Part shown: one piece after another, positions 6,718 through 24,974 of the stretch | Layout: each line of letters begins with the position of its first letter | How positions within the stretch are numbered: the stretch's first letter is position 1 | IMG/VR virus record: IMGVR_UViG_3300014202_000478 | Location: 27,464-91,463 of that record | Reading direction: 5' to 3' (one strand) | Source of the DNA: a virus | DNA length: 64,000 bases | The notes under the pieces: model-generated | Databases searched by the model: none | What the model was told of the DNA's origin: nothing | Seen by the model: only the letters and a program-made list of their open reading frames with translations | Made by a program: the position numbers and the translations under genes

Positions 6718-7080
6718 ATGTGGATGTTCACGAAGTACGGGTTCTTCGCTTCTGCCAACGCACGTCAGGGCGAGGGAGAGCCTTGGCAACCCGTCGATAA
6801 GGACCGCATCGCGGTCAGGGCACGGGATAAGCAACACCTTGCTAATCTCGCGGGACGATTCCCAGCGTTGGCCAGCGTGCCGATTCACGATGACACGCTT
6901 GCAGACTATCGTTATAGGATTTTTATTCCCAAAACACAATGGGCAGAGATTGTTTCTGAACTTGCCGATGAAATGGATTATGACCGCTTTAAGCCTTCCG
7001 TAATCCCATTTGAAGGCGACAAGGACTATAAGCATACTCTTCTCGACGTTTGGAGCCTGATGTATGCTACTCAAAAGTGA
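6718..7080 (+). CDS. conserved phage hypothetical protein
   Basis: GAGG RBS; MWMFTKYGFF...VRAR...DYRYRIFI pattern recalled from phage proteins. Confidence 0.75.
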   Translation: MWMFTKYGFFASANARQGEGEPWQPVDKDRIAVRARDKQHLANLAGRFPALASVPIHDDTLADYRYRIFIPKTQWAEIVSELADEMDYDRFKPSVIPFEGDKDYKHTLLDVWSLMYATQK

Positions 7081-8501: not shown

Positions 8502-8519
8502 AAACTATATATATTTTAC
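8502..8519. promoter_or_regulatory. bidirectional late-promoter-like TATATATA between two ATGs 18 bp apart
   Basis: aaactatatatattttac separates ATG 8501(-) and ATG 8520(+); no room for a Shine-Dalgarno on either side. Confidence 0.6.
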
Positions 8520-12775: not shown

Positions 12776-13061
12776 TATACTTCTCCAGATACTCAGTGAG
12801 TTCCTTTAGCCTGTTCTTCTGAAATTCTAATTGATCTTCATGTGCTTTCTTTTGGCCTTGCATATATTCGAGCAAACTACTAACTGCCTCTTCCTTGGTT
12901 GCACTGCCTTTGGAAGAATAATGCCAACCACCAACACTTGTAGTCGCTAGCCACGGTTTGTCCAGTGGCCAAGACTCTACTTCACAGTCATTCCAATATG
13001 TCTTTCGACGGACATATATGCCATTAGGAAGGGTTTCATCATCTGTGAATGCTTCAAGCAT
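12768..13061 (-). CDS. hypothetical protein
   Basis: 97 aa ORF coupled to aceA. Confidence 0.6.
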   Translation of the reverse strand: MLEAFTDDETLPNGIYVRRKTYWNDCEVESWPLDKPWLATTSVGGWHYSSKGSATKEEAVSSLLEYMQGQKKAHEDQLEFQKNRLKELTEYLEKYNG

Positions 13062-14287: not shown

Positions 14288-14343
14288 AAACTATCTACCC
14301 CTGAAAAGTTATATTAAAATATAAAAGTATTGATAAATATTAT

Positions 14344-14775
14344 ATGATAAACTTTATCAGATGGATTAAAATAAGAGAAGCATGGAATCAAAGCACCGTA
14401 TGGACACCAGAACGTGTTGCTCAACAAAATGGTGGTCGTAGTCTTAACCAACCAGAAGATACCAATAAGGTAATTGGCAGATTTAATCCAGTTTTTCCAG
14501 AATCCCGTGGAAAAGCTGAAATTTTGGCAGACCTTGTTTCTAAAGCTACAGGCATACCAACACCAGATTTACTTTCTAGCAGAAAACAAGGGACGGCTGA
14601 CGCAAGATGGATACTTTATGCTTTATTATTAGACGCTGGTAAAATATCTGGCGCAAAAGTTTTACAAATGATGGGTCAAAGAAATTTAATCCCAAGAAAA
14701 TTACTAGCTGCTCGTAATAGCCCATTATATCAAAACCTACTAGCACAATCTCATGCCGCTTTAGTCGCACGCTAG
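14344..14775 (+). CDS. protein with degenerate DnaA domain IV-like HTH and capsid-targeting-like N-terminus
   Basis: VSKATGIPTPDLLSSRKQGTADARWILYALL resembles the DnaA C-terminal pattern; starts MINFIRWIKIRE. Confidence 0.5.
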   Translation: MINFIRWIKIREAWNQSTVWTPERVAQQNGGRSLNQPEDTNKVIGRFNPVFPESRGKAEILADLVSKATGIPTPDLLSSRKQGTADARWILYALLLDAGKISGAKVLQMMGQRNLIPRKLLAARNSPLYQNLLAQSHAALVAR

Positions 14776-15347
14776 ATTATATTTCTAAATGTCAAATTAA
14801 TCCTTGGACCTACAACTGTAGTAGTCTTTGGAACACAATGCTGCCAGTGATGTTGCATTGTGCCATCCATGATTAATAGACTACCGTGTTTGAGTAGATA
14901 TTCCTTCTTTTCACGGGATTTGATATGTCGAATCTGGAACAGTCTCTCAGCCCCTAATGAGATTGATGGCACTGTTGGATTCTGTCCTAGCTCGCGTTCA
15001 TTATCGGAATGCCAGCCAATAGAATCCTTGCCATATCTGTAATAATTGAGGAGAAGACTGTTAAACGGTTTGCCTGTTTCTTTTTCGACTCGCTTTTTAA
15101 CTTCCTCTAAATACCAAGGCCAAGGAAGTGAGTCGTGAGATACGCCCGAATAAGCGTAATTAACGCCTGGATCGGAGTAGTAAGCGGTCATGCGTGGAAA
15201 GAAGTTACCATAAAAGGTCTTCTCTTGTTTCCAAGTGGTTTTTAATTTTAATACCTGAAATAGCTTATCAGCAATTGGCTGTGTGAAAAAGTCAGGTATG
15301 TAAAGTAAAATTCCGCCGTCAGTTAGTTCTTCTTGCGTAGTTTCCAT
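14772..15347 (-). CDS. alkB: AlkB-family 2OG-Fe(II) dioxygenase (ALKBH2/3-like)
   Basis: NSLLLNYYR, IGWHSDNE (HxD), SISLG, HGSLLIM, WQHCVPK, RINLTFR. Confidence 0.93.
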   Translation of the reverse strand: METTQEELTDGGILLYIPDFFTQPIADKLFQVLKLKTTWKQEKTFYGNFFPRMTAYYSDPGVNYAYSGVSHDSLPWPWYLEEVKKRVEKETGKPFNSLLLNYYRYGKDSIGWHSDNERELGQNPTVPSISLGAERLFQIRHIKSREKKEYLLKHGSLLIMDGTMQHHWQHCVPKTTTVVGPRINLTFRNII

Positions 15348-15403
15348 AGTAGTTTTATAGCTTCGGTAAGTCCGATAGCCTTGAAAAAGTCAGTCCAACT
15401 CAT
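15323..15403 (-). CDS. possible 26-aa amphipathic peptide
   Basis: ATG 5 nt after tRNA 3' end; MSWTDFFKAIGLTEAIKLLWKLRKKN; overlaps alkB start. Confidence 0.3.
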   Translation of the reverse strand: MSWTDFFKAIGLTEAIKLLWKLRKKN

Positions 15404-15408
15404 AGTAG

Positions 15409-15492
15409 TAGCCAAGGTGGGAGTCGAACCCACACACCCTTAACGGGTACTGGATTTTGAGTCCAGCGCGTCTGCCATTCCGCCACTTGGCC
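15409..15492 (-). tRNA. tRNA-Leu(CAA), class II
   Basis: GGCCAAG/CTTGGCT acceptor; CTGGA-CT CAA AA-TCCAG; long variable arm. Confidence 0.95.
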
Positions 15493-15496
15493 ACGA

Positions 15497-16099
15497 TCAT
15501 TCCACATATAATGAAATGTTCTTTCTGCAATTGTCACGCTTATAACAGCCTTCCAATGCAGCCTTTACTTCATCATAGTTTGTTCCATCCCATTTGATGC
15601 ACCTTGGATGGGAATAATTCTTATTCGTATCATTAACAGGCATAATCCCTACGCCGCGTGGCCGTGCTTTTAACCAATTATCCATGTAGTCAGGAAAATC
15701 ATCATAAAGGAATTTTCCATAAACCATTGCCTTGTTTGAAGTTATGTGAACATCTATCAACTCGCCTAAATGAGTCTGACACCATTCTACCTTTTCTTTC
15801 CAGGCACGGGGATAGCGTTTTGGACCTTTTGTTAGAATGTGATTTTTAAACCCGATGGTTTCAGCGAGAGTAAAAATCTTCATTCCTGCGGTCAGAACGG
15901 GTAGATTGCGCCACCAACAAGGCTGTTTCTTGATTAAGCGAATCAGCGATTTGAAAGGCTCCTGTTCATCAGCCTGCCACATGCCAAGTTCGTCAAACCT
16001 TTTTAGGTCACTTTCGCTGACAAGTTTGCGAATGTCGGTTCGCAATTGTCCTTCATAGTCAGCGAGGCTACCATCCATATCAAACAGGCCGATGTTCAT
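15497..16099 (-). CDS. HAD-family 5'(3')-deoxyribonucleotidase
   Basis: LFDMDGSLAD motif I, ILT, KVEWC, LYDD motif IV. Confidence 0.85.
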   Translation of the reverse strand: MNIGLFDMDGSLADYEGQLRTDIRKLVSESDLKRFDELGMWQADEQEPFKSLIRLIKKQPCWWRNLPVLTAGMKIFTLAETIGFKNHILTKGPKRYPRAWKEKVEWCQTHLGELIDVHITSNKAMVYGKFLYDDFPDYMDNWLKARPRGVGIMPVNDTNKNYSHPRCIKWDGTNYDEVKAALEGCYKRDNCRKNISLYVE

Positions 16100-16169
16100 T
16101 GTATGCTCCTAAGCCATTCTCCAAATGCTGAGGCTGGTTGTGGTTGACCCTGAATTGTATCAATTTCTG

Positions 16170-16349
16170 TCATTTGCCACCACTATATTTTTTCATATTT
16201 TCTGTCTTGCAGTTTCCGTAATCCATGTCCTTTTCAAAGTGGGTTTCATCAGGATTTTGCATTAAATCCTGTTTCAGCCTTTTGCGAGCTTTCTTATTAC
16301 CTTCTTTTTTAAGCTTGCTTTTTAGCTGTCTGTATTCGCGTTTATCCAT
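16170..16349 (-). CDS. small basic hypothetical protein (59 aa)
   Basis: GGAG RBS; MDKREYRQLKSKLKKEGNKKARKRLKQDL...; below the track length cutoff. Confidence 0.65.
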   Translation of the reverse strand: MDKREYRQLKSKLKKEGNKKARKRLKQDLMQNPDETHFEKDMDYGNCKTENMKKYSGGK

Positions 16350-16362
16350 GTTTACTCCGTTG

Positions 16363-16370
16363 TATTTATA
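16363..16370 (-). promoter_or_regulatory. T4-type late promoter TATAAATA
   Basis: Exact TATAAATA upstream of the RBS of ORF 16170..16349. Confidence 0.55.
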
Positions 16371-17394
16371 TCATTTCAGCTATCATTGTTTCTAATGTAT
16401 GTTCGCACTTCCAAGCAGGAAAATGACTCATGAACTTTCTGGTATCGCTGATCCACCAGCGATGATCCCCAATCCTACTCTCATTCACAAGCTCATAGTT
16501 TAGCTTAGAGTTTGTGATTCTTTCAGCTAAGGATATTGCTTCAACCACGGAGCAACTGTTCTTCCTGCCTCCCCCTATGTTATACGCTTCACCTGGACGT
16601 GGGTTTTGGTAAAACTCGAAAAAAGCTGCAACCAAGTCATCTGCGTGGATGTTATCCCGAACTTGTTTCCCTTCGTAACCATATATTATGTAAGGGGTTT
16701 GGTTTATTATACATTTCGTCAAGTAGGAAAGAAAGCCATGAAGCGGAACGCTTTGGTGTTCTTTTCCAGTAATACAACCACAGCGAAACACGCCAGTTTT
16801 TAACCCGTTAAATTTTGCGTATTCTTGGGTTAAAAGATCGGCTGCGGCCTTTGACACTCCAAAGAAAGTGTGGAGTGAATTGTCAATCGACATGGACTCA
16901 TCAATTCCGTTATAGAATGGATGGTCAACTGGCAAGTCGCATCTTGTTTCCAGGTCTATTAGCGGTAGATGATTTGGAGTATTCCCATATACTTTGTTTG
17001 TTGACGTGAAAATGAATACAGCTTCGGGAGAGTATCTTTTAGTCAAGTCAAGGACGTTAAGAGTCCCATTTGCATTGATGTTAAAGTCAGTTATTACATT
17101 TCTGGACCAATCGTGTGAAGGCTGTGCCGCCGTATGAATCACTAAGTCTATTTTGTGGGTTCTAAAGACGTTCTCAACGCTGTTATAATCCCTTATGTCC
17201 AAATCATAATTGTAGAAATTCTCAACACTGTTCTGTATAAGAACTAGGTTATTCTTTATAGATGCATTTTTACCAAAGAAAGTTTCGCGGCTATTGTTTT
17301 CAATGCCTATTATTTGATCGAATTTGGTTCCCAAGAGCCTTACGCTTGCACTACCAACCAAGCCGCCCGCCCCTGTGATGAGAGCTATGGACAT
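16366..17394 (-). CDS. NAD-dependent epimerase/dehydratase (CDP-tyvelose/paratose epimerase-like)
   Basis: ITGAGGLVG Rossmann motif, HTAAQPSHD, STNKVYG, FRCGCITG, KQVRDNIH; the YxxxK position reads FGVSK. Confidence 0.9.
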   Translation of the reverse strand: MSIALITGAGGLVGSASVRLLGTKFDQIIGIENNSRETFFGKNASIKNNLVLIQNSVENFYNYDLDIRDYNSVENVFRTHKIDLVIHTAAQPSHDWSRNVITDFNINANGTLNVLDLTKRYSPEAVFIFTSTNKVYGNTPNHLPLIDLETRCDLPVDHPFYNGIDESMSIDNSLHTFFGVSKAAADLLTQEYAKFNGLKTGVFRCGCITGKEHQSVPLHGFLSYLTKCIINQTPYIIYGYEGKQVRDNIHADDLVAAFFEFYQNPRPGEAYNIGGGRKNSCSVVEAISLAERITNSKLNYELVNESRIGDHRWWISDTRKFMSHFPAWKCEHTLETMIAEMI

Positions 17395-17397
17395 GCA

Positions 17398-18084
17398 TTA
17401 TTTATGGTTATGAATAGCGAAATAATGGTAGAACCCATATTCTCTTGGCATTATTTTAGGTTTAACCCCTGTTTTCCATAAAGCATAAACTAAACAAGCT
17501 TGGCTACAAGGCCAAGCTGCTTTTGTTTCGTTTATATCAGTCCACCATGTTTCCGCTAGTTCATTTGAGAATTTATGCATGTTGTAAACAATGAATCCGT
17601 CCCAATAAAGACCCAGCTTAGTCGGCATCCCTTCTTTTTGATACTTTTCAATTCTGCTTGTCAGGGCTTCACGACCAGTTTCTACATATTTACCTATGCT
17701 AAGAACGTGGGTGAGTTCTTCGATAGGGCAATGTCTGTCACCGTGAACACTTAAAGCAAGATTGTAGTCAAAAATGTTCGACTCAACAATTTCTTTAACG
17801 AAATTCTTATTAATGATTTGATCTTGAGCGTCAAGGTGTATGACTAAATCATAACCTTCTAGTTTCTTACACTTGTTAGGAAATACTCTGTAGGCTTTAG
17901 CCTGCATACACCAAGGCCATCTAACCAAGTGAGGTGGTCGAGGATCGGTTAAAGGCATTAGGTTTTCTTCGTCATGAGTGTAATAAACGAAATCGCAAGG
18001 ATATGTTTGTGGCTCATGAGTGTCTTGGATTTCTGGTCTATCCCAGCCACCAAGGTTAGCAGAATAAATACATACAGATGTCAT
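17398..18084 (-). CDS. putative glycosyltransferase (DUF616-like)
   Basis: Starts MTSVCIYSANLGGWD; IHLD, HGDRHC, SQACLVYALW; track start lies inside tRNA-Tyr. Confidence 0.65.
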   Translation of the reverse strand: MTSVCIYSANLGGWDRPEIQDTHEPQTYPCDFVYYTHDEENLMPLTDPRPPHLVRWPWCMQAKAYRVFPNKCKKLEGYDLVIHLDAQDQIINKNFVKEIVESNIFDYNLALSVHGDRHCPIEELTHVLSIGKYVETGREALTSRIEKYQKEGMPTKLGLYWDGFIVYNMHKFSNELAETWWTDINETKAAWPCSQACLVYALWKTGVKPKIMPREYGFYHYFAIHNHK

Positions 18085-18096
18085 ACTGTATATAGG

Positions 18097-18180
18097 TGCG
18101 TAGGGCAGGATTCGAACCTGCGAAGAACTAAGTTCGCCAGATTTACAGTCTGGTGCAATTGGCCACTCTGCCACCTACGC
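18097..18180 (-). tRNA. tRNA-Tyr(GUA), class II
   Basis: GCGTAGG/CCTACGC acceptor; CCAGA-CT GTA AA-TCTGG; long variable arm. Confidence 0.95.
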
Positions 18181-18363
18181 ATAGAGCATTTGTTCTTGTA
18201 TTTTAATCCATGCTAAAGTTTCGATTTCAAGTTCTTTGATAAGAAAATAACTTCTTGGAAACACCTCTTCGATTTCTTCGATACTATCCGCTTGGACATA
18301 ACGGACAGGGCCGTAAAGATCATCGTCGTCTTCGCTTTCATATCTATAAATTGCATATATCAT
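18175..18363 (-). CDS. small acidic hypothetical protein
   Basis: MIYAIYRYESEDDDD...; the track's longer start overlaps a tRNA. Confidence 0.55.
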   Translation of the reverse strand: MIYAIYRYESEDDDDLYGPVRYVQADSIEEIEEVFPRSYFLIKELEIETLAWIKIQEQMLYA

Positions 18364-18446
18364 TGTATTATAATCCTCGATTCTGTGTTCGTCAGGGCTT
18401 TCACCCTGGCATGGCCCTGGCCTTTCGGCTGTTCCATGACTAACAG

Positions 18447-18521
18447 TGACCACCGTGGGATTCGAACCCACACATTCCACGTTCTGAGCGTGGCGACTCC
18501 TGCCAATTGGTCTAGGTGGCC
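18447..18521 (-). tRNA. tRNA with Leu anticodon CAG and short variable loop
   Basis: GGCCACC/GGTGGTC-A; CCACG-CT CAG AA-CGTGG; variable loop AATGT; 75 nt. Confidence 0.9.
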
Positions 18522-18787
18522 CTATTTTTCTTCATCGAATCACCCGTTGCATTACGATGATCCTTAATCTGCTTGTGATAATCTGGAATATCATCGTCGG
18601 CATGACAAGTAGTGCTTACACTAATTACTTTCCAACCATCATCCCACACACCTTCGCTGTCACGCAGTTTGAGGAACTTATTCAAGACAGCAAATTCCTC
18701 TGGAATATAACTAACTTGTTCTGAGTACGATGTTTCAGAATGCTTTTTCCGCATCTTGCATTGTCTGTAATAAACTGTCTTGCTCAT
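18512..18787 (-). CDS. hypothetical protein
   Basis: 91 aa; stop lies inside the 5' end of the tRNA. Confidence 0.65.
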   Translation of the reverse strand: MSKTVYYRQCKMRKKHSETSYSEQVSYIPEEFAVLNKFLKLRDSEGVWDDGWKVISVSTTCHADDDIPDYHKQIKDHRNATGDSMKKNRAT

Positions 18788-19448
18788 ATATTCTCAATTC
18801 AATCTTCCCGTTATCTACTACTAGGTATGTTGGCGAAGATTCAGTCCAACAGCCACTATTATAATAATCTTTATCCTCTTCCGCAAGATGAGTGTGCCCA
18901 CAACACACAAAATCGCATCTTTCTTTTTCTTTATGCTTACGGGCCAACCCTTTAATTCGGTCAGCACACCGCAGGAACGTTTTGGAGTTGTGTTTGGCTA
19001 ATTTAGCCAGGTAAAAACTCCCATCTAGTTTCTGTAGGAACCAGTATATCACATCTCCAAACCATGTTAGGATTGGATGTTCACTCAAGAAATCATCGTA
19101 TATGTCTCCGTGGAAACATAAAACCTGTTTCCCACCTGATTCGAAAATAAATTCGTCAGTATAATGAACCCCTATCAAATGGGCGATGTATTGTGCTGGT
19201 CCATGAGCATCATGGTTGCCCCTAATCCAAATTACTTCAATGGTGTCGGAAACTTTCCTTATAGTAGATAGGATTTTCCAGTGCCACTTGTGTAATCGGG
19301 AGTCGAAATTCTCGAAAACGTCACCGTTCAGGATCAGTTTCTTTGTTTCTATTTCTTTGTTTTGTATTTTTTCTAGGAAATTAACCAGCGACTTTGCTTG
19401 ACAGTTATCAGCACCAATATGTAAATCGGAAATAATGATTGCATCCAT
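18735..19448 (-). CDS. metallophosphoesterase (LpxH/UDP-2,3-diacylglucosamine hydrolase-like)
   Basis: SDLHIG, NGDVFE, RGNHD, FHGD, GHTH, YNSGCW. Confidence 0.88.
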   Translation of the reverse strand: MDAIIISDLHIGADNCQAKSLVNFLEKIQNKEIETKKLILNGDVFENFDSRLHKWHWKILSTIRKVSDTIEVIWIRGNHDAHGPAQYIAHLIGVHYTDEFIFESGGKQVLCFHGDIYDDFLSEHPILTWFGDVIYWFLQKLDGSFYLAKLAKHNSKTFLRCADRIKGLARKHKEKERCDFVCCGHTHLAEEDKDYYNSGCWTESSPTYLVVDNGKIELRIYEQDSLLQTMQDAEKAF

Positions 19449-19506
19449 ACTAAGTATTTACATTATTAGTCCCTTCGTATATGTTAATTTTCAGAGAAGA
19501 TTTCAG

Positions 19507-19587
19507 TGGCCAAGGTGGGAGTCGAACCCACAATCCCGAAGGAACAAGTTTCTAAAACTTGCGCGTATACCGTTTCGCCACAAGGCC
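19507..19587 (-). tRNA. tRNA-Leu(UAG), class II, with two U.U acceptor mismatches
   Basis: GGCCTTG/CTTGGCC; CAAGT-TT TAG AA-ACTTG; long variable arm. Confidence 0.85.
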
Positions 19588-19696
19588 ATAAAGATCGACT
19601 AGCAGGTGTCACGCCTTTTGATACCGCCGATCAGAATATCCGCCGCTCATTCTGGTTGTCATAGCTAGATGAACTTAAACCTCTTTGGGTAGCCAC

Positions 19697-20188
19697 TTAC
19701 ATATCCATATGTAAAGGAGGATCGCTCACCGCTCGCTCGACCAGCCCTTCGTTCGCGGAACTTGCGTTTTCGCCCCTGCAATGCTCACTGTCCGCTACGA
19801 CCGTTCCTTTTAAATCTCTTTTTTGGGAAGGACTTAACCTTCTAATTTTGGTGTCAGAAGTTAAACAAATTGAAGCTCCATCATTCCAGATTTTCGAATT
19901 TGTCTCAAAAGCTTCAACAATTTTTCTTTCTTCTAGCTCCGCATTACCAAAAACTGCAAATTTTCCACCAAAACTACCAGCTACTATAAATGGGTTATTT
20001 CGGTCTATTTTAACTTTTGTGCGTCTTATTTCCAAGTGAGCAAAGTCGAGTGTGGTCCAAACGTACTTCCACGGCTGGTCATTAAGCCGAGTGTACTTTT
20101 TAGGCCATTTTATAACTTCAAGCCCACAGAAATGCCACTCCTGTAGTGGCATTTTTAAGAGCCAATAGTCCAATTCTTCGAAAAACAT
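19697..20188 (-). CDS. hypothetical protein
   Basis: Starts MFFEELD 3 nt after the tRNA-Ser 3' end. Confidence 0.6.
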   Translation of the reverse strand: MFFEELDYWLLKMPLQEWHFCGLEVIKWPKKYTRLNDQPWKYVWTTLDFAHLEIRRTKVKIDRNNPFIVAGSFGGKFAVFGNAELEERKIVEAFETNSKIWNDGASICLTSDTKIRRLSPSQKRDLKGTVVADSEHCRGENASSANEGLVERAVSDPPLHMDM

Positions 20189-20191
20189 AAG

Positions 20192-20278
20192 CGGAGGGTG
20201 TAGGATTTGAACCCACGGTCCCCTTGCGGGGACTCTAGTTTTCAAGACTAGCGCAATCGGCCACTCTGCCAACCCTCC
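20192..20278 (-). tRNA. tRNA-Ser(UGA)
   Basis: GGAGGGT/ACCCTCC-G; CTAGT-CT TGA AA-ACTAG; long variable arm. Confidence 0.95.
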
Positions 20279-20313
20279 AGCAATTTCACACCCCGTTAGA
20301 CATATATAACAGT

Positions 20314-20904
20314 ATGCTAAACTTTAGGGGGTGGTTTATGGAGACTTTCAGCGTACCAAAGTCGCATATAAAAGTCAAGTTGCCTTCTGCTAAACAACCC
20401 AAAAACTTTTCCTGTGGGGCTTCCGCTTTAAGGGCTATCGCAGTCCATTTTAACGTCGGTCCTAACAACGAACAATTCTATATAGACAAGTGTAACACAA
20501 CTTATAAAGATGGTACACACCCAAAAGATATTATTCGTGTTGCCCGTGAACTTGGCCTAACCGTAAGGTCTAAGTCCAAAATGTCCATCAAAGACCTACA
20601 TGAGTATCTTGATGACGGTATTCCTGTTGTCTGCTCCATCCAAGCATGGGGCGATCAGAAAAAATATCCCGACACCGACCACAGCGGGCATTATGTCGTC
20701 GCCATCGGCTACACCAATGACAAAATCTATTTCATGGACCCGTCAATTAAAGGCCACCGTGGATTCCTGCCTAATGACGAATTTATCGAACGCTGGCACG
20801 ATGAAGAAGCTGATGGCACCAAACTCAATCGCTATGGAATCGCCATCTGGAATCCCACAGCAATTAAAAAACAACATTTGAACAAAGTCAAAAAGATTCA
20901 ATGA
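20314..20904 (+). CDS. C39-like cysteine peptidase with capsid-targeting-like N-terminus
   Basis: QPKNFSCGASAL (Cys), GHYVVAIGY (His), FMDPS (Asp); starts MLNFRGWFME. Confidence 0.85.
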   Translation: MLNFRGWFMETFSVPKSHIKVKLPSAKQPKNFSCGASALRAIAVHFNVGPNNEQFYIDKCNTTYKDGTHPKDIIRVARELGLTVRSKSKMSIKDLHEYLDDGIPVVCSIQAWGDQKKYPDTDHSGHYVVAIGYTNDKIYFMDPSIKGHRGFLPNDEFIERWHDEEADGTKLNRYGIAIWNPTAIKKQHLNKVKKIQ

Positions 20905-21134
20905 TAGTGTTCGGGCTTACGTCGATCCGAACGCTTTAACTTCATGATGGCCGACCTATAGCAATCCAACCAATATTCGTGTTGGAAGTTGTCAGGATTC
21001 CAGCCACTGAGAATCTTTTTGATGTAATCGTCCCACTTCATCTTGTTCTTGGCACAATTATCATCCAAAACTCGTTCTTCAAAAACCGTTGTTAGTTCAT
21101 CAAGGATATCAACTAGGGGTATTTTCTTGCTCAT
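20898..21134 (-). CDS. hypothetical protein
   Basis: MSKKIPLVDIL...; in array run. Confidence 0.55.
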   Translation of the reverse strand: MSKKIPLVDILDELTTVFEERVLDDNCAKNKMKWDDYIKKILSGWNPDNFQHEYWLDCYRSAIMKLKRSDRRKPEHYH

Positions 21135-21375
21135 TTTTATTTCCAATATAATTACCGTCGTCGTCCCAATCGTCATCGTTTCTTGGCTTGACTATCATCA
21201 ATACTAATTTGTCTCCGCACCACACAGGAGCGCGAAGCGTCGTCCATTTTTCATGTGTGTATTTTGTGTTCAATTGAAGGTATAAGTCTTCTAGGGAATC
21301 TGCACAAAGCACTTCTGAATCTATGCGTTTTCCTAGTTCTTTCAATTCTTTAAGTGTAATTGGTTCCCAACTCAT
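21109..21375 (-). CDS. hypothetical protein
   Basis: TAATG coupling to upstream ORF. Confidence 0.55.
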   Translation of the reverse strand: MSWEPITLKELKELGKRIDSEVLCADSLEDLYLQLNTKYTHEKWTTLRAPVWCGDKLVLMIVKPRNDDDWDDDGNYIGNKNEQENTPS

Positions 21376-21647
21376 TACCAACAATCCTCTTCATATTCAT
21401 TGCGCTGTGAAGCATAGTAGTCTTCCCATGCTTCCTTTTCGTATTTCGCTTCTAGCTCTCTATCTCTGATTTCTTGCAGTGATGGATAGCCATTGGCTTT
21501 CCTGTCCCTGCCAGGGTTAATCAGTTTTGAAAGCTGTCGTTCTGGATCGGTTGCATGAGCGTCCCCGTAGTAGAACTCATATTTGCATTCTGGACAATAA
21601 TCTCTGCGGGGGTCATTACCTAAATTCGGATGGTCGCAAAAATCCAT
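21375..21647 (-). CDS. small Cys-motif hypothetical protein
   Basis: AGGAG RBS just after tRNA; MDFCDH...YCPEC. Confidence 0.65.
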   Translation of the reverse strand: MDFCDHPNLGNDPRRDYCPECKYEFYYGDAHATDPERQLSKLINPGRDRKANGYPSLQEIRDRELEAKYEKEAWEDYYASQRNEYEEDCW

Positions 21648-21661
21648 TATTAAACTCCTAG

Positions 21662-21736
21662 TAGCACGGAAGGGATTCGAACCCTTACTGCCCACGTTTT
21701 AAATGTGGTGACTCCTGCCAGTTGGTCTACCGTGCC
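21662..21736 (-). tRNA. tRNA with Leu anticodon UAA and short variable loop
   Basis: GGCACGG/CCGTGCT-A; CCACA-TT TAA AA-CGTGG; variable loop GCAGT; 75 nt. Confidence 0.9.
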
Positions 21737-21752
21737 ATAAGTGGCCCTAGTC

Positions 21753-21929
21753 TTAACTCAGTATTACTAAATCGTTGCCCATATTGTCAGGTTTTGTATC
21801 CTTTTTAGTCGCGTCGTTAATTGCCTGGAAAAATCCTTGCATCTGCTCGTTAATATGTTCAACAGCTTCAATCTCTTCCTGACTCCAGCCAGCATCTTGA
21901 TACATTTTCCGCAATTCGTCTTTTGTCAT
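21753..21929 (-). CDS. small hypothetical protein (58 aa)
   Basis: ATG 2 nt after tRNA discriminator; MTKDELRKMYQDAGWSQEEIEAV... Confidence 0.55.
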   Translation of the reverse strand: MTKDELRKMYQDAGWSQEEIEAVEHINEQMQGFFQAINDATKKDTKPDNMGNDLVILS

Positions 21930-21931
21930 AG

Positions 21932-22019
21932 TGGCCTTGGCGGGATTCGAACCCGCACCCTCTTACGAGGACAACGTTCTCAACGTTGCGCGTTTACCTG
22001 TATGTTACACCACAAGGCC
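21932..22019 (-). tRNA. tRNA-Leu(GAG), class II, enlarged D loop
   Basis: GGCCTTG/CAAGGCC-A; CAACG-TT GAG AA-CGTTG; D region TAACATACAGGTAA. Confidence 0.88.
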
Positions 22020-22023
22020 ATAG

Positions 22024-22104
22024 TGTGGTAGGTGGGACTTGAACCCACACCCCTTTCGGGACACGCCCCTCAAGCGTGCGCGGCTGCCATTACGCCACTA
22101 CCAC
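22024..22104 (-). tRNA. tRNA-Leu(GAG), class II
   Basis: GTGGTAG/CTACCAC-A; CACGC-TT GAG GG-GCGTG; long variable arm. Confidence 0.93.
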
Positions 22105-22420
22105 ATGTTTTTCTTCGCTTCGTCAAAAAATATCTTCGAGCATTCAGACAGGTGCGTTTTTGTATATCTTTCTCCTGTCTTTATCCAGAAGAAATTGTAA
22201 ATTTCTCTAATGGCTTGCACCAAGCCATCCTCGGTCAACTCACCTCTGTAAGCTGCCAAGCGAAAACTTGGTCAGCCATATTCAGGGCATTGTAGTCCTT
22301 GAGTTAAAGGAAGCCTATAGCCATCCCTCCAAGCCCAACATCGCGGATTGTTCCATTCCTGAATCCGCTTTCCAACTACAATTAGTTCTGTAGGTGTCAT
22401 TTAACCTCCATAGGAAAAGG

Positions 22421-22600
22421 TTATATATCGTATGCTTCCCATTTCTTGTTATATTCTGCTCGCCATACTGAGTATCGTTGTTTTGGACCACGATATCCTA
22501 GTCGCTCTTTATTACGGATTTTGAATCCACATTCTGTGACCATTTTCCTGCGAACGAACTTATAGAACCCAGGATGGTCTAATATTCCATATTTATTCAT
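22421..22600 (-). CDS. small basic hypothetical protein
   Basis: ATG 2 nt after tRNA discriminator; MNKYGILDHPGF... Confidence 0.55.
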   Translation of the reverse strand: MNKYGILDHPGFYKFVRRKMVTECGFKIRNKERLGYRGPKQRYSVWRAEYNKKWEAYDI

Positions 22601-22602
22601 AG

Positions 22603-22677
22603 TAGCACGGGTGGGATTCGAACCCACACTGTCCACGTTCTAAGCGTGGCGACTCCTGCCAATTGGTCTACCGTGCC
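22603..22677 (-). tRNA. tRNA with Leu anticodon UAG and short variable loop
   Basis: GGCACGG/CCGTGCT-A; CCACG-CT TAG AA-CGTGG; variable loop ACAGT; 75 nt. Confidence 0.9.
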
Positions 22678-22852
22678 GTTCTTCTTCTAACTGCTTGCGT
22701 AATTTCGCAATTCTTAACCGCAAGCAATCCACACAAGTCACCTGTTCATCGACATAACTAAGCACTACTTGATCGTGGCCACTAATACCATACATTTTAC
22801 CGCAAAGAGCCATCAAGTCACTGCCCATGCCAGCATGAACTAATCCGTCCAT
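22640..22852 (-). CDS. small hypothetical protein (CxxC)
   Basis: 70 aa; 3' end reads 38 nt into the tRNA. Confidence 0.5.
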   Translation of the reverse strand: MDGLVHAGMGSDLMALCGKMYGISGHDQVVLSYVDEQVTCVDCLRLRIAKLRKQLEEERHGRPIGRSRHA

Positions 22853-23229
22853 ATTCTATACCCCGTTGGTTTACCGTGCCGATCATACTTCGTCCAACCT
22901 ACCTGCCTACAAAACCAATTCCAAACCTTTTTTCTCCAAGGACGCGAGAAATCCATAGGATAACCGTCTGCGTCCAAAGTTGCTCTATACCTTTCTGTCT
23001 CACGGTTATGTTCTGCTAGTTCTTCTGGATGCGTTTCCCAATATTCTCTTGACCGCTTTATATTCTCTGACTCGGCTTCCACCATTACTTTGACACACTC
23101 GCTGTCACGATTCTTTTCACATTCAGGACAGAAAGTAAAACTAAGGTGGCCATCCCACCAGGACCAACTTTCGCCTTCTAGTTTAACTCTCTTGCATAAA
23201 TCGCAATTCATTGTCCATATATCTTCCAT
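22840..23229 (-). CDS. hypothetical protein with CxxC pairs
   Basis: CDLC and CPEC; TAATG coupling. Confidence 0.65.
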   Translation of the reverse strand: MEDIWTMNCDLCKRVKLEGESWSWWDGHLSFTFCPECEKNRDSECVKVMVEAESENIKRSREYWETHPEELAEHNRETERYRATLDADGYPMDFSRPWRKKVWNWFCRQVGWTKYDRHGKPTGYRIWTD

Positions 23230-23393
23230 TAATACCTCATGTCACTCTTGTCGCCGCCCTTATTCAAACGAGCAAGTATTGCTTCTGGAAATTCCTTGGT
23301 AGGTTTACCCCACCATTTATTCATTTTGCGATCCCATATTTGCCAGCCCTTGGGATTAGTTCTTACGCAATATCTAGCGTTTCTTTTGCCCAT
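23229..23393 (-). CDS. small basic hypothetical protein (54 aa)
   Basis: MGKRNARYCVRTNPKGWQIWDRKMNKWWGK...; TAATG coupled to next ORF. Confidence 0.55.
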   Translation of the reverse strand: MGKRNARYCVRTNPKGWQIWDRKMNKWWGKPTKEFPEAILARLNKGGDKSDMRY

Positions 23394-23541
23394 AATCAAA
23401 GTTGCGATATTTGATCCTATAGTATACCTTTCTAGCCTTCTCTTCCAGGTAATTGTATCCTTTAATTACCCAATACATCGCTAAAAGAGAATAGAGATAG
23501 AATATACTACGCCACGTCATTCGTTCATATCTGTTTTCCAT
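23374..23541 (-). CDS. small membrane-associated hypothetical protein
   Basis: ATG 2 nt after tRNA-Ser; hydrophobic stretch IFYLYSLLAMYWVI. Confidence 0.5.
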   Translation of the reverse strand: MENRYERMTWRSIFYLYSLLAMYWVIKGYNYLEEKARKVYYRIKYRNFDYGQKKR

Positions 23542-23543
23542 AG

Positions 23544-23627
23544 CGGTAGGTGCGAGAGTTGAACTCACAAAACCTTTCGGTTTGTCCCGCTTCAAACGGG
23601 GTGGGCCTGCCAATGCCCAAACCTACC
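23544..23627 (-). tRNA. tRNA-Ser(UGA), atypical D arm
   Basis: GGTAGGT/ACCTACC-G; anticodon loop TT TGA AG; long variable arm. Confidence 0.88.
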
Positions 23628-23630
23628 AAG

Positions 23631-23717
23631 CGGAAGGTGTCGGAGTCGAACCGACAAGCCCCTTTCGGGACTACTCGTTTTCGAAACGAGCCGACTTGCC
23701 AATGTGCAAAACCTTCC
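23631..23717 (-). tRNA. tRNA-Ser(CGA)
   Basis: GGAAGGT/ACCTTCC-G; CTCGT-TT CGA AA-ACGAG; long variable arm. Confidence 0.9.
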
Positions 23718-23720
23718 AAG

Positions 23721-23801
23721 TAGTCTAGGTGGGAGTCGAACCCACAATCCCGAAGGAACGAATTTTTAAGACTCGCGCGTATACCGTTTCGCCACAAGAC
23801 C
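23721..23801 (-). tRNA. tRNA-Leu(UAA), class II
   Basis: GGTCTTG/CTAGACT-A (one U.U); CGAGT-CT TAA AA-ATTCG; body similar to tRNA at 19507. Confidence 0.9.
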
Positions 23802-23807
23802 ATGAAG

Positions 23808-23894
23808 CGGAAAGTGTGGGAGTCGAACCCACAAGCCCCTTTCGGGACTACTTAGTTTCCAACCAAGCTGACTTGCCAATGTGCAAAACTTTCC
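23808..23894 (-). tRNA. tRNA-Ser(GGA)
   Basis: GGAAAGT/ACTTTCC-G; CTTGG-TT GGA AA-CTAAG; long variable arm. Confidence 0.9.
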
Positions 23895-23895
23895 G

Positions 23896-24054
23896 TTACT
23901 TATCCTTACAAAAATACCATATTACAAATCCTATAGCAACAAAAACTAATGTAAAAGCCGCTGCCTGCAAAAACATTTCTGGTGTAATCGGCGGATTATC
24001 ATAATGGTTCTTACCAGGCCCGCTTAATGCCTGATTTATAATTACAGTATCCAT
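23896..24054 (-). CDS. small single-pass membrane protein (52 aa)
   Basis: ATG 2 nt after tRNA; TM segment AAAFTLVFVAIGFVIWYF. Confidence 0.6.
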   Translation of the reverse strand: MDTVIINQALSGPGKNHYDNPPITPEMFLQAAAFTLVFVAIGFVIWYFCKDK

Positions 24055-24056
24055 AG

Positions 24057-24131
24057 TAGCCACCGTGGGATTCGAACCCACACTGTTACCCTTTTGAGAG
24101 GTACGACTCCTACCAGTTGGTCTAGGTGGCC
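24057..24131 (-). tRNA. tRNA with Leu anticodon CAA and short variable loop
   Basis: GGCCACC/GGTGGCT-A; TACCT-CT CAA AA-GGGTA; variable loop ACAGT; 75 nt. Confidence 0.9.
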
Positions 24132-24136
24132 ATATA

Positions 24137-24220
24137 AGCGACTGAATAAAGCTGAAAGTCACCCTTATTCACTTAAATTGAGGGCACTCCGAATTTACGC
24201 AGACTACATCAATCATCGCT
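24137..24220 (-). ncRNA. candidate three-way-junction small RNA between two tRNAs
   Basis: P1 AGCGAT/GTCGCT, P2 GATTGA/TCAATT, P3 TGAATAAGG/CTTTATTCA; G.U pairs favour the minus strand. Confidence 0.45.
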
Positions 24221-24222
24221 AG

Positions 24223-24302
24223 TGTAGCGTGCAGGAGTCGAACCTGCAAGGCTTTCGCGTCAAGGTTACAGCTTGGTGGGCCTGCCAATGCCCAAACGCT
24301 AC
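24223..24302 (-). tRNA. tRNA-Tyr(GUA)
   Basis: GTAGCGT/ACGCTAC-A; anticodon loop CT GTA AC; D arm identical to Ser(UGA) at 23544. Confidence 0.88.
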
Positions 24303-24309
24303 ATAAGAG

Positions 24310-24392
24310 TGGGTGTATGAGGATTCGAACCCCTTAGCACTTAGTACAATCGGGTTACAGCCGATTTCGCTTCCCACAGACGTAGTACACCC
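24310..24392 (-). tRNA. tRNA-Tyr(GUA)
   Basis: GGGTGTA/TACACCC-A; ATCGG-CT GTA AC-CCGAT; imperfect T stem. Confidence 0.85.
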
Positions 24393-24393
24393 A

Positions 24394-24512
24394 ATTTGGT
24401 AGCAGGCTTAAAGTGCTACTCGGACTATGACCTTGTTTTTCAGACGGAATTTCACCGCCAGGCCAGCCGTCCGCACCCTATTGCTTGCGTGCGAACCGCC
24501 TTACTACCAAAT
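24394..24512 (-). ncRNA. candidate ~120-nt structured RNA of unknown family
   Basis: Closing stem TTTGGTAGTAAGGC/GCCTGCTACCAAA; hairpin GTTCGCAC/GTGCGGAC; compound arm ending GGCGG-TGAAATT-CCGTC. Confidence 0.55.
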
Positions 24513-24513
24513 A

Positions 24514-24570
24514 ACTCGTATCCCTATTCCGTTAGACGAGTCCACTAACGGCTGAGCGGATTGCTCCACT
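24514..24570 (-). ncRNA. candidate GNRA hairpin plus H-type pseudoknot
   Basis: AGTGGA-GCAA-TCCGCT; S1 CCGTTAG/CTAACGG, L1 TGG, S2 ACTCGT/ACGAGT, L3 AATAGGGAT. Confidence 0.45.
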
Positions 24571-24579
24571 TGGGTTTAG

Positions 24580-24668
24580 CGGAAGGTGAGGGAGTCGAAC
24601 CCTCAGCACCCGTGAGGGTGCGCTAGCTTAGCAGGCTAGTGTGACGAACCGATAGTCACCTACCTTCC
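24580..24668 (-). tRNA. tRNA-Ser(GCU)
   Basis: GGAAGGT/ACCTTCC-G; CTAGC-CT GCT AA-GCTAG; long variable arm. Confidence 0.95.
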
Positions 24669-24680
24669 AAGGCAAACCGA

Positions 24681-24694
24681 ATTTTCAAAGAACA
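24681..24694 (-). promoter_or_regulatory. boxA-like antitermination element
   Basis: TGTTCTTTGAAAAT 12 nt upstream of the first tRNA; resembles rrn boxA (GYTCTTT(A/G)A(A/C)A). Confidence 0.65.
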
Positions 24695-24726
24695 GAAAAC
24701 TTTGGTACAATTGCAATTGCGGGTAT

Positions 24727-24772
24727 AAAAAAAAAGAAACCCGCCGTGACCTTTCAGCCACGGCGGGTTTCT
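24727..24772 (-). terminator. intrinsic terminator / attenuator upstream of tRNA array
   Basis: AGAAACCCGCCGTGGC-TGAAAG-GTCACGGCGGGTTTCT followed by a T run; begins about 19 nt after the leader-peptide stop. Confidence 0.9.
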
Positions 24773-24791
24773 ACCCCTGTTTCCGCTAAGC

Positions 24792-24875
24792 CTATTCGGT
24801 CCATCTTCCTGCGCTCGACAACGAGAGCGATAATGAATAATAACTGGACAGTAGGTTAACGGAGAAAGTATGCAC
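24792..24875 (-). CDS. Leu/Ser/Tyr-rich attenuator leader peptide (27 aa)
   Basis: AAAGGAAAC RBS, GTG start; MHTFSVNLLSSYYSLSLSLSSAGRWTE*; 14 consecutive L/S/Y codons; not in ORF track. Confidence 0.8.
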   Translation of the reverse strand: MHTFSVNLLSSYYSLSLSLSSAGRWTE

Positions 24876-24946
24876 CTTAAAGTTTCCTTTTAGTTAATAT
24901 ATGCAGCAAGCCGCAAATATTTTCGTGAAAATCATCAACTTCCCTT

Positions 24947-24974
24947 ATCTTACGCCGAAAATTCGGTTTGTCAA
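24947..24974 (-). promoter_or_regulatory. sigma70-like promoter for leader/tRNA array
   Basis: TTGACA-N16-TAAGAT. Confidence 0.6.

Follow-up and report, generated by a model that had tools for sequence, protein, structure and literature searches.

A candidate leader-peptide attenuator upstream of a Leu/Ser/Tyr tRNA array in huge phages

Introduction

In a set of related huge phages, a ribosome-mediated leader-peptide attenuator of the trp/ilv type probably makes transcription of the class II tRNA array depend on the speed of Leu/Ser/Tyr decoding. The same architecture is present at 15 distinct loci, including the one described here; these loci are related to each other, so their agreement does not amount to 15 independent tests. 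The new feature is the kind of gene under control—tRNA genes instead of enzymes. An earlier note, made from the letters of this DNA alone, had read the locus as an attenuator, and the core of that reading is now backed comparatively by conservation of the leader reading frame, covariation in the terminator, recurring predicted pairings, a boxA-like element, and the constant presence of Leu/Ser/Tyr tRNA genes downstream. What the comparison shows directly is the anatomy and its conservation, together with the covariation and the exclusive association with Leu/Ser/Tyr tRNA genes.

Genes for tRNAs are thought to be controlled at initiation, through growth rate and the stringent response, and by boxA antitermination. 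To our knowledge, leader-peptide attenuation is known for amino-acid biosynthesis and for a synthetase operon, and not for tRNA genes; neither the literature that we searched nor Rfam contains a published case for tRNA genes, in agreement with the earlier note, which knew of none. If the proposed reading is correct, the virus gauges decoding speed by means of a purpose-built test message and tunes its tRNA supply for each isoacceptor set. This would explain how huge phages with ~60 tRNAs avoid needless synthesis. The element also bears on the question of why phages carry tRNAs at all—to compensate for codon usage, or to replace tRNAs that have been cleaved or degraded—and could give synthetic biology a compact, portable sensor of tRNA availability.

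Locus Anatomy and Promoter

The window is the whole stretch of DNA that was analysed, 64,000 nucleotides from IMG/VR record IMGVR_UViG_3300014202_000478 (positions 27,464 to 91,463); coordinates below count from its first letter. The source phage is an uncultured huge phage of ~600 kb. On the minus strand, promoter, Shine-Dalgarno sequence, leader ORF, terminator, boxA-like element, and co-oriented tRNA genes follow one another in that order. The individual features are as follows.

24947..24974, minus strand: sigma-70-type promoter TTGACA-N16-TAAGAT, 10/12 matches, with an A-rich tract upstream
24895..24916, minus strand: 5'-UTR element, a small hairpin (TGCGGCTTGCTGCA) followed by TGCATATATTA, conserved in alignments of relatives
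24885..24889, minus strand: Shine-Dalgarno AAGGA, 9 nt 5' of the GTG start
24792..24875, minus strand: leader ORF with GTG start, 27 codons and a TAG stop; 15 of the 26 post-start codons are Leu/Ser/Tyr
24845..24868, minus strand: region 1, the 5' strand of the long-range helix P1/P1b, covering codons 3-11 (MFE folds, 15 loci)
24813..24854, minus strand: control-codon run of 14 consecutive Leu/Ser/Tyr codons, 11 of them different (codons 8-21)
24812..24829, minus strand: inner hairpin H (CGCTC / GAGCG) within the ORF (folds and pair counts)
24775..24803, minus strand: region 2, the 3' strand of P1, including the stop codon and conserved GCTTAGCGG (folds)
24754..24789, minus strand: predicted antiterminator, in which TTAGC.G and GGG of region 2 pair with CCC..T.GCTGA of the terminator 5' arm and loop (duplex fold)
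24726..24772, minus strand: intrinsic terminator with a 17-bp G+C-rich stem (24772-24735), a GAAA loop, and nine T
24681..24694, minus strand: boxA-like element TGTTCTTTGAAAAT, 12 nt 5' of the first tRNA
24668-24579, minus strand: tRNA-Ser(GCU), the first tRNA (ARAGORN)
3926..24668, minus strand: co-oriented array of 17 ARAGORN tRNAs with interspersed ORFs

The promoter, which the earlier note had placed at the same site, has the top score among all sites in the 13 kb scanned; in the relatives that have this stretch, the -35 hexamer TTGACA is invariant and the -10 follows the pattern TA..(A/G)T. The 5'-UTR element downstream of it may serve as a second promoter with a -10 only, or else in pausing or processing. 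The sequence GCGTATATTAG, which resembles this motif, lies upstream of the class I tRNA array of LR756511, a complete 595-kb relative; no further copy is found within the 64-kb window. The ribosome binding site claimed earlier is likewise present, and AAGGA or AGGA is kept in 15/15 loci with a GTG or ATG start 8-9 nt downstream. Weak promoter-like sites occur within the tRNA array itself (for example, at 23955-23928), so some tRNAs may also be made independently of the attenuator. A TTGACA inside the boxA-like element was rejected as a promoter 3' of the terminator, since no -10 follows it and the start would fall inside tRNA-Ser.

Recurrence in Related Phages

Relatives of the locus were found beside homologues of a neighbouring 279-aa protein that are as little as 40% identical to it. 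A megablast search of 50,697 phage records with the region gave no match, and LR756511 was the only match in a distant-mode search of phage records. A 14-base pattern scan of viral contigs hit 84 loci, of which only L054 is a real relative and the others are chance matches; a protein-pattern scan of viral contigs returned the L054 contig again and nothing else. The 27-residue leader peptide found no match by tblastn against phages, a result that says little because the query is short and of low complexity.

Known RNA families were searched for as well. No Rfam leader family reaches its threshold, the best match, and the only leader family listed, being Thr_leader (RF00506) at 20.2 bits against 55 (E = 0.15), and the T-box (RF00230) has no match in 24650-25000 at E <= 10, nor in the whole window at the gathering threshold. 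Contigs from two sediment metatranscriptomes span the leader and end inside the terminator; DNA carry-over is possible, and these contigs are not counted as support for termination because contigs cannot show RNA 3' ends.

The Leader Reading Frame and Its Control Codons

The leader ORF is the part of the element that would sense decoding, and its frame and 14 listed codons are exactly as the earlier note gave them. Leu, Ser, and Tyr account for 17.5% of codons in the phage's long ORFs; against that background, 14 such codons in a row have a probability of ~2.5e-11 per position. Chance origin is excluded by this value together with the same arrangement in 14 further loci. Across all 15 loci, the leader devotes 54-63% of its codons to these three amino acids (binomial P 2e-7 to 5e-5 each), and their order varies among lineages with the composition preserved.

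The choice of codons is equally particular. Here the leader touches all 10 anticodon species of the window, as had been claimed, with P ~0.009 given the Leu/Ser/Tyr counts and phage codon usage; over the 15 loci, each leader touches 7-10 of the 10 isoacceptor classes (6.3-8.0 expected from codon usage). Rare synonymous codons are used preferentially. Because almost all Leu/Ser/Tyr isoacceptor classes are represented in the leader, down to the rare codons, shortage of any single class II tRNA species should open the gate. Some control codons (TCG, CTC) sit in the 5' arm of hairpin H, so RNA structure may also constrain these.

The frame itself is maintained. Frame 0 of the 15 loci is free of stops, and 58% of its codons are Leu/Ser/Tyr; in the other two frames, where stops occur, the share is 26% and 22%. 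Between the start codon and the invariant CGG anchor, the spacing takes seven lengths between 78 and 96 nt and is a multiple of 3 in 14/15 loci; the single off-frame locus carries a 1-nt deletion 3' of the stop codon. Composition, frame, and codon diversity are conserved in the 15 related loci, as the earlier note's reading would have it.

One alternative takes the leader to be a structured non-coding RNA—a riboregulator that binds a protein, a tRNA, or a ligand—in which the open frame is incidental and a bound factor would decide between the alternative pairings. The long conserved and covarying stem (P1/P1b/H) would suit a binding platform; however, the Shine-Dalgarno sequence and start are held at the right spacing, indels keep the frame, stops are absent from frame 0 only, and neither the T-box nor any other Rfam family matches. 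The codons that are unpaired in the MFE fold are the richest in Leu/Ser/Tyr (70%), which argues that the bias is not a by-product of the helices. We find this alternative scarcely plausible.

It is also highly improbable, in our view, that the ORF is translated without serving as a codon sensor, whether as a device for fixed partial termination, a general coupling to translation, a shield against Rho, or a source of a functional 27-residue peptide. Any translated leader before a terminator couples transcription to general ribosome availability, and within subgroups the two ends of the peptide (N-terminal MHTFS; C-terminal G-(R/T)-W/G-T-E) show fairly good conservation. Between lineages, however, the order of the central residues is free and only the Leu/Ser/Tyr composition and codon diversity are kept; that composition equals the identities of the downstream tRNAs exactly in 15/15 loci, and the preference for rare codons is the opposite of what a merely well-translated leader needs. 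Codon sensing by the leader is the reading that we carry forward.

Terminator, Leader Helices, and Predicted Alternative Pairings

The helices of the leader are marked by covariation. In the terminator, 95% of pairs across the 15 loci are standard, with compensatory changes in 12/15 pairs; the earlier note had correctly placed the terminator and its T run, but gave the stem 16 bp where our scan counts 17 pairs. Helix P1, which corresponds to the protector pairing proposed in that note, appears in 15/15 MFE folds with 94% standard pairs and double changes in 2/6 pairs (consensus fold). Hairpin H has 90% standard pairs and compensatory changes in 3/6 pairs, and is possibly a pause or spacer hairpin. 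As a control, the partner column was shifted; the pairing signal of the terminator, hairpin H, and P1 then collapses in every case.

Region 2 is the element with a predicted choice of partners, either region 1 or the terminator 5' arm. It extends ~9 nt upstream and 17 nt downstream of the stop codon, and its CGG is invariant in 15/15 loci. The stop codon falls within region 2 in 13/15 loci; in the other two, L088 and L170, it lies 12 nt upstream, so a ribosome at the stop would cover region 2 only partly.

The second pairing of region 2, which the earlier note described as a weaker antiterminator using the terminator 5' arm, is predicted to recur in the relatives by duplex and constrained folds. 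Its predicted energy is -11.9 kcal/mol here and -11 to -20 in the 15 loci, compared with roughly -30 for the terminator. The same three-helix topology is found in 13/15 loci, with some double changes. Against shuffles, single sequences do barely better (z between +0.06 and -3.1; median, about -1.4). When region 2 and the terminator arm are aligned with MAFFT, RNAalifold recovers only the GGG/CCC helix of 3 pairs, because L088 and L170 are misaligned; the antiterminator was assessed by per-sequence duplexes and constrained folds instead.

Ribosome-Position Fold Model

The position of the ribosome was modelled by constraining the folds, and the state was scored by the pairing that region 2 specifically forms with the terminator arm. 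An initial score, which took the fraction of the arm paired to any upstream segment, was dropped as uninformative because the arm always finds some partner when the 3' arm is absent. Three-state behaviour was obtained in 14/15 loci: region 2 is paired with region 1 in the absence of a ribosome (P 0.66-0.90) and with the terminator arm when a ribosome occupies codons 6-12 (P 0.33-0.88); a ribosome stationed at the stop codon leaves it without either partner. At L089, the antiterminator is predicted even without a ribosome. For the present locus, the modelled antiterminator probability is 0.56-0.60 with the ribosome on codons 9-15 and 0.00 without a ribosome or with one at the stop. In this equilibrium model P1 re-forms once the ribosome is on codons 16-21, so perhaps only the first ~two thirds of the run is sensed.

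Proposed Mechanism

Leader translation, ribosome stalling, the switch itself, and the role of boxA are what we infer from this anatomy. Transcription would begin at the strong sigma-70-type promoter, and a ribosome would load on the 27-codon leader; the pairing of region 2 would then decide among three states. Without translation, region 2 and region 1 (codons 3-11) would form P1, leaving the 17-bp terminator to form and transcription to stop. With fast translation, the ribosome would reach the stop codon and cover region 2, and the terminator would again form. With slow decoding, when charged Leu/Ser/Tyr tRNAs are short, the ribosome would linger (roughly on codons 3-15, by the fold model) and cover region 1, and region 2 would be free to pair with the emerging 5' arm of the terminator. 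RNA polymerase that reads through would pass the boxA-like element, probably become termination-resistant by way of host Nus factors, and go on into the tRNA genes. The net effect would be a negative feedback in which class II tRNAs are made on demand.

The boxA-Like Element

A boxA had been proposed between the terminator and the first tRNA, and a boxA-like element is indeed present there and conserved in relatives. Compared with the published consensus GYTCTTTAANA (PMC5725501), it agrees at 10/11 positions; position 8 is G, not A, in all copies. The core TCTTTGA(A/C/T)AA is found in 14/15 loci and, in 12 of them, ends 13-16 nt before the first tRNA. By its likeness to the consensus, the element may be a NusB/NusE-dependent antitermination site. 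A second exact copy at 8663-8674, the only other one in the window, lies antisense inside a 1199-aa ORF and was set aside as a chance match.

The tRNA Array and Its Specificity

The genes downstream of the leader match its control codons in identity. Every tRNA of the window lies downstream of the leader on the minus strand and is specific for Leu, Ser, or Tyr; the anticodons are Leu UAG, CAG, UAA, GAG, CAA, Ser GGA, GCU, UGA, CGA, and Tyr GUA. The first nine tRNAs (24668-23543) are tightly packed. The earlier note had counted 12 co-oriented tRNAs: the co-orientation holds, but ARAGORN gives 17 in the window, and Rfam adds one extra tRNA match at 21932-22019. The association extends to the relatives, in which every assignable tRNA within 12 kb downstream of the 15 leaders (115/115) is Leu, Ser, or Tyr. 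Among the ORFs of the array and its surroundings, Pfam scans detected neither a synthetase nor a tRNA-repair gene that would alter the reading.

Class I tRNAs are organised separately. LR756511 carries 47 class I-length tRNAs at 140-200 kb from its class II array, among them one 75-nt gene called Ser and one without assignment. The main block of these has a similar promoter, no leader ORF, and no strong terminator; a search of the class I region for equivalent attenuators gave nothing beyond weak hairpins, most of them tRNA arms, and a single candidate that lies within coding sequence. The class II array, for its part, also contains, next to its long-arm tRNAs, some that are class I-shaped, with a short arm and a Leu anticodon. 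The proposed gating of the Leu/Ser/Tyr set alone in this lineage, together with these co-resident short-arm tRNAs, raises the question of why long-arm tRNAs should be controlled separately.

One answer, favoured by the earlier note, is that counter-defence is the main selective reason for the switch: cleavage of class II tRNAs by a nuclease of the host or of a rival element would stall ribosomes on the leader and so switch on replacement tRNAs. Rescue of infection by phage tRNAs from tRNA-cleaving defences is known (PMC10264068, PMC11555353, PMC11464382). Bacterial Schlafen nucleases act as tRNases against phages, and cleavage of type II (long-arm) tRNAs is reported for human SLFN11, so that class-specific nucleases of this kind have a precedent (PMC13056530 and its reference 2). 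In this lineage only the class II array has the proposed attenuator, and the short-arm Leu-anticodon tRNAs of the array could escape an enzyme that recognises the long arm. On the other hand, the sequence itself says nothing of defence; the literature searched contains no report of a bacterial nuclease with specificity for the Leu, Ser, and Tyr tRNAs; and the studied bacterial Schlafen is not described as class II specific (PMC13056530). A supply-and-demand homeostat explains the same anatomy without an attacker, and the class II grouping may have other causes, such as shared processing or ancestry. We regard counter-defence as plausible, but unlikely to be the main reason for the switch. The narrower proposal, that array and attenuator form an inducible answer to long-arm-tRNA nucleases (for example, Schlafen-like enzymes) by which the short-arm Leu-anticodon tRNAs go unrecognised, strikes us as quite doubtful; were it true, the circuit would be a sensor and effector in one, with the ribosome itself detecting an immune attack on tRNA. 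The counter-defence reading is a special case of attenuation by Leu/Ser/Tyr decoding speed, the reading that we prefer.

Comparison with Known Systems

The closest models are the amino-acid leaders of enterobacteria, which include trpL, hisL, leuL, and pheL as well as multivalent leaders—that of ilvGMEDA senses Ile/Leu/Val and that of thr senses Thr/Ile. Common to these and, on the proposed reading, to the phage element are a short translated leader with a run of control codons for several amino acids, alternative 1:2, 2:3, and 3:4 pairing (2:3 being predicted here), a stop codon placed so that a ribosome can block region 2, and a terminator before the regulated genes; the distance from control codons to terminator is also similar, at ~85 nt here. 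There is, however, no sequence relation, Thr_leader in Rfam scoring 20 bits against a 55-bit threshold. The phage element differs further in being phage-owned and in targeting tRNA genes, not biosynthetic enzymes, so that slow decoding would be answered with more decoder and not with more amino acid. What it would sense is a structural group, the class II tRNAs, and not a metabolic pathway; it also adds a hairpin inside the ORF and a boxA-like element after the terminator.

Two further systems report on tRNA. The pheST operon of E. coli has a leader-peptide attenuator (pheM) for phenylalanyl-tRNA synthetase, and shares with our proposal the attenuation of a component of the translation apparatus through sensing of cognate tRNA charging; it regulates a synthetase and senses one amino acid, whereas the phage element would regulate tRNA genes and sense three amino acids through about ten isoacceptors. 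T-box elements resemble the proposed switch in making a terminator/antiterminator decision in a 5' leader that reports tRNA status, and they control genes for aminoacylation. In contrast to the phage element, which has a conserved ORF and no T-box match, they bind uncharged tRNA directly, with no translation involved. Finally, boxA/Nus antitermination of the rrn type resembles the phage locus in having a boxA-like site directly upstream of stable-RNA genes. In the phage, however, this site lies downstream of an attenuator, and it would therefore act only on transcripts that have already passed the checkpoint.

Anatomy of the leader locus

The elements that the earlier note had placed at this locus are all found on the minus strand of the window, and the anatomy it described is confirmed; the terminator is present too, with a 17-bp stem by scan instead of the 16 bp first given. 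Leader codons 8-21 form the reported run of 14, every one of them Leu, Ser or Tyr. In order of transcription, the features are:

24974-24947, minus: promoter TTGACA-16-TAAGAT
24895-24905, minus: TGCATATATTA-type motif, 10-20 nt before the Shine-Dalgarno site of the leader
24889-24885, minus: Shine-Dalgarno site AAGGA
24875-24792, minus: leader GTG ORF, 27 codons plus TAG
24772-24735 (stem), minus: terminator, 17-bp stem plus nine T
24694-24681, minus: boxA-like element TGTTCTTTGAAAAT
24668-24579, minus: tRNA-Ser(GCU)

The TGCATATATTA-type motif has no second copy elsewhere within the window. A similar sequence, GCGTATATTAG, precedes the class I tRNA block of the related huge phage LR756511 (L178, about 13055-13065), and both motifs lie 3' of a consensus TTGACA promoter; the motif may act as an additional promoter or as a signal for processing.

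Genomic setting and relatives

The parent IMG/VR virus record is 103 kb long and rated 21% complete by CheckV, which makes it a piece of a ~0.5-0.6-Mb phage. Three features lie upstream of the leader:

24984-25397, minus: small secreted-looking ORF rich in Tyr, Gly and Pro, often 3' of the 279-aa protein
25394-26233, minus: 279-aa protein without a Pfam family
26600-29741, plus: SbcC/SbcD-like pair (SMC_N/AAA_23 plus Metallophos), divergent and upstream in relatives

The 279-aa protein has 205 homologues, in huge-phage-like contigs, and occurs on a 623-kb contig as well. Relatives were sought through this protein: 41 of the 205 homologues were aligned, loci were fetched from metagenomes and from Logan and JGI assemblies, and an nhmmer profile built from the first seven leaders was used to find further loci. 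The profile locates the element in 15 distinct loci, each time directly downstream of the 279-aa protein or its trailing Tyr/Gly/Pro-rich ORF—the leader is always preceded by this protein. The most distant locus, L136, has a neighbour-protein identity of only 40%.

Among deposited phage records, LR756511.1 (595 kb, uncultured) is the sole relative. It stems from a data set of the kind presented in "Clades of huge phages" (PMC7162821), where as many as 67 tRNAs are reported for such genomes. Its order matches that of the window: promoter, Leu/Ser/Tyr-rich 27-codon GTG leader, near-identical terminator and 12 Leu/Ser/Tyr tRNAs. In L130 (Ga0187855_10021462), whose homologue of the 279-aa protein is more distant, that protein sits within a dense mixed array of 20 class I and class II tRNAs, with no such leader adjoining it; keeping class II tRNAs apart is thus a trait of one clade.

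The leader is a conserved reading frame

Across the 15 loci the Shine-Dalgarno site and start codon are conserved, and leaders range from 21 to 29 codons. Frame 0 has no stops and is 58% Leu/Ser/Tyr, against 26% and 22% in frames 1 and 2, which hold 6 and 22 stops. The start codon and an invariant CGG immediately past the stop are separated by seven different distances (78-96 nt), divisible by three in 14 of 15 loci; the exception has a 1-nt deletion 3' of the stop codon. The centre of the peptide is unconserved in sequence—Leu, Ser and Tyr swap positions across lineages, and composition alone is kept.

Leu/Ser/Tyr make up 54-63% of each leader, compared with 17.5% in the long ORFs of the phage (binomial P 2e-7 to 5e-5). 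The bias is strongest, at 70%, among codons that the predicted fold leaves unpaired, so it is no side effect of the helices. The window leader uses 11 different Leu/Ser/Tyr codons and, as had been claimed, touches all ten anticodon species that the array offers (with its composition fixed, P is about 0.009). Per leader, 7-10 of the 10 isoacceptor classes are represented, where phage codon usage predicts 6.3-8.0, and the excess is seen in every leader. Conservation in relatives, proposed in the earlier note as a check, holds for both Leu/Ser/Tyr composition and isoacceptor coverage in 15 of 15 leaders. All 15 contain the rare codons CTC (6% of Leu) and TCG (8% of Ser). This codon sampling carries two caveats: the 15 loci share ancestry, and TCG CTC forms part of a hairpin arm.

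RNA structure and predicted switching

All 15 sequences share a common predicted fold. In the long-range helix P1/P1b, region 1 (codons 3-11) pairs with region 2, which takes in the end of the ORF with its stop codon and the conserved GCTTAGCGG just beyond; an inner hairpin, H, lies within the 3' half of the ORF, and the terminator follows. In the alignment, standard pairs make up 95% of the terminator, 90% of H and 94% of P1, with compensatory changes at 12 of 15 terminator pairs and 3 of 6 H pairs and double changes at 2 of 6 P1 pairs. When the 3' partners are shifted by one or two columns, all three break down.

Of the two alternative pairings proposed earlier, the protector (P1) recurs in all 15 predicted folds, and the antiterminator is a prediction. 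Region 2 (GCTTAGCGG plus GGG(T)) has the 5' arm and loop of the terminator as its alternative partner, with predicted energies of -11 to -20 kcal/mol and a three-helix layout common to 13 of 15 loci, and it shows a few double changes. Against shuffled controls the margin in single sequences is slight (z from +0.06 to -3.1, median about -1.4), and the alignment-based fold misses most of the structure; for these reasons we regard the antiterminator as only probable.

To model the states, a 28-nt ribosome footprint was masked codon by codon and the transcript folded to the terminator loop. In 14 of 15 loci region 2 is predicted to pair with region 1 rather than the terminator arm when no ribosome is present (P 0.66-0.90); to pair with the terminator arm when a ribosome occupies codons 6-12, often 15 (P 0.33-0.88); and to be covered when the ribosome is at the stop codon. 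The picture has three limits. P1 can re-form in the model once the ribosome is beyond about codon 16; for L089 the antiterminator is favoured with or without a ribosome; and two leaders, L088 and L170, have their stop codon 12 nt further upstream.

The tRNA array behind the leader

The earlier note counted 12 tRNAs; ARAGORN finds 17 in the window and Rfam one more match. Every one is a minus-strand Leu, Ser or Tyr tRNA located downstream of the leader. The 18 tRNAs of the full 103-kb record are likewise confined to these three types, and so are the assignable tRNAs in the 12 kb that follow the 15 leaders, 115 in total. The complete relative LR756511 has about 60 tRNAs, and a few untyped outlying matches are listed elsewhere in its record. 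Its 12 Leu/Ser/Tyr tRNAs (82-91 nt) lie behind the leader at about 427-438 kb; another 47, of class I length, occupy 230-291 kb (among them a 75-nt gene called Ser and one without assignment). The main class I block starts behind a promoter much like that of the leader, TTGACA-16-TAAAGT, and a TATATTA motif that is also similar, with neither a leader ORF nor a strong terminator ahead of it, and a hairpin-plus-T-run scan ahead of the class I tRNAs gave weak matches only; because of this, the proposed gate is specific to the class II set in this lineage. One stand-alone hairpin-plus-T-run candidate in the class I region was rejected as lying within coding sequence.

Individual features of the window array include:

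18446-18521, 21661-21736, 22602-22677 and 24056-24131, minus: short tRNAs with Leu anticodons CAG, UAA, UAG and CAA
21932-22019, minus: Rfam tRNA match of 88 nt (51.6 bits), uncalled by ARAGORN
22023-22104: tRNA-Leu(GAG), adjoining the 88-nt match
24393-24578, minus: 186-nt spacer between tRNA-Ser(GCU) and tRNA-Tyr, in a tightly packed part of the array
13061-14287 and 14772-15347, minus: interspersed metabolic genes

The four short tRNAs are 76 nt long and class I-shaped (short variable loop, large D loop, A73), in an array that also has normal long-arm Leu tRNAs; the type (75-77 nt) recurs in L087, L088, L168, L169, L170, L171, L172 and L175 and is absent from LR756511. Array cargo includes an isocitrate-lyase-family protein (Pfam ICL, E = 2e-93), which is unusual for a phage, an AlkB-like 2OG-Fe(II) oxygenase, an NT5C nucleotidase, an NAD-dependent epimerase and a metallophosphoesterase. 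In L136 (5750-6120) a protein-coding ORF separates the terminator from the first tRNA, so the attenuator can gate a protein gene too; the boxA-like motif is absent there.

Proposed mechanism and purpose

We consider it likely that the locus is an attenuator in which a Leu/Ser/Tyr leader gates the class II array. No translation, or fast translation, would give termination; a ribosome lingering within the control run would be the sole state giving read-through. Slow Leu/Ser/Tyr decoding would thereby be reported, and more Leu/Ser/Tyr tRNA would be the response.

The simplest purpose is supply on demand during an infection that seizes translation. The earlier note favoured counter-defence against tRNA-cleaving immunity, which we think unlikely to be the main reason. 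Phage tRNAs do overcome tRNA-cleaving defences (PMC10264068, PMC11555353, PMC11464382), and the class I-shaped Leu-anticodon tRNAs beside long-arm ones would suit such a role. Schlafen nucleases protect bacteria from phages, and one human member is reported to cleave type II tRNAs (PMC13056530 and its reference 2).

Beyond the attenuator, 14 of 15 loci share a boxA-like core, TCTTTGA(A/C/T)AA, whose end lies 13-16 nt ahead of the first tRNA in 12 of those; it matches the published consensus GYTCTTTAANA (PMC5725501) at 10 of 11 positions. Elsewhere in the window an exact copy occurs only once more, antisense within a long ORF. The element is ruled out as an array promoter, as no -10 follows it and the start would fall within tRNA-Ser. 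Transcripts that pass the attenuator may recruit host Nus factors at this putative boxA, which would serve a long, mostly untranslated array.

Two sediment metatranscriptome runs yield contigs 95-99% identical to the leader region. These stop within the terminator, none reaching tRNA-Ser, whereas one contig from a DNA run does extend to it; contigs cannot show RNA ends, and with tRNAs poorly captured in such libraries they are only compatible with the attenuator model.

Comparison with known systems

Rfam has no family match for the leader (the best-scoring leader family, Thr_leader, reaches 20 bits where 55 are required) and no T-box in the window or leader region. Full-text literature searches for phage tRNA genes or tRNA operons controlled by a leader peptide or an attenuator returned nothing relevant. 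Among known systems, those closest to the locus are the ilv and thr attenuators, both multivalent, and that of pheST (pheM), along with T-box riboswitches and rrn boxA antitermination. The switching predicted by the state model follows the logic of the trp, thr and ilv attenuators; what would be new here is the use of leader-peptide attenuation, a known control, on phage tRNA genes of the class II set.
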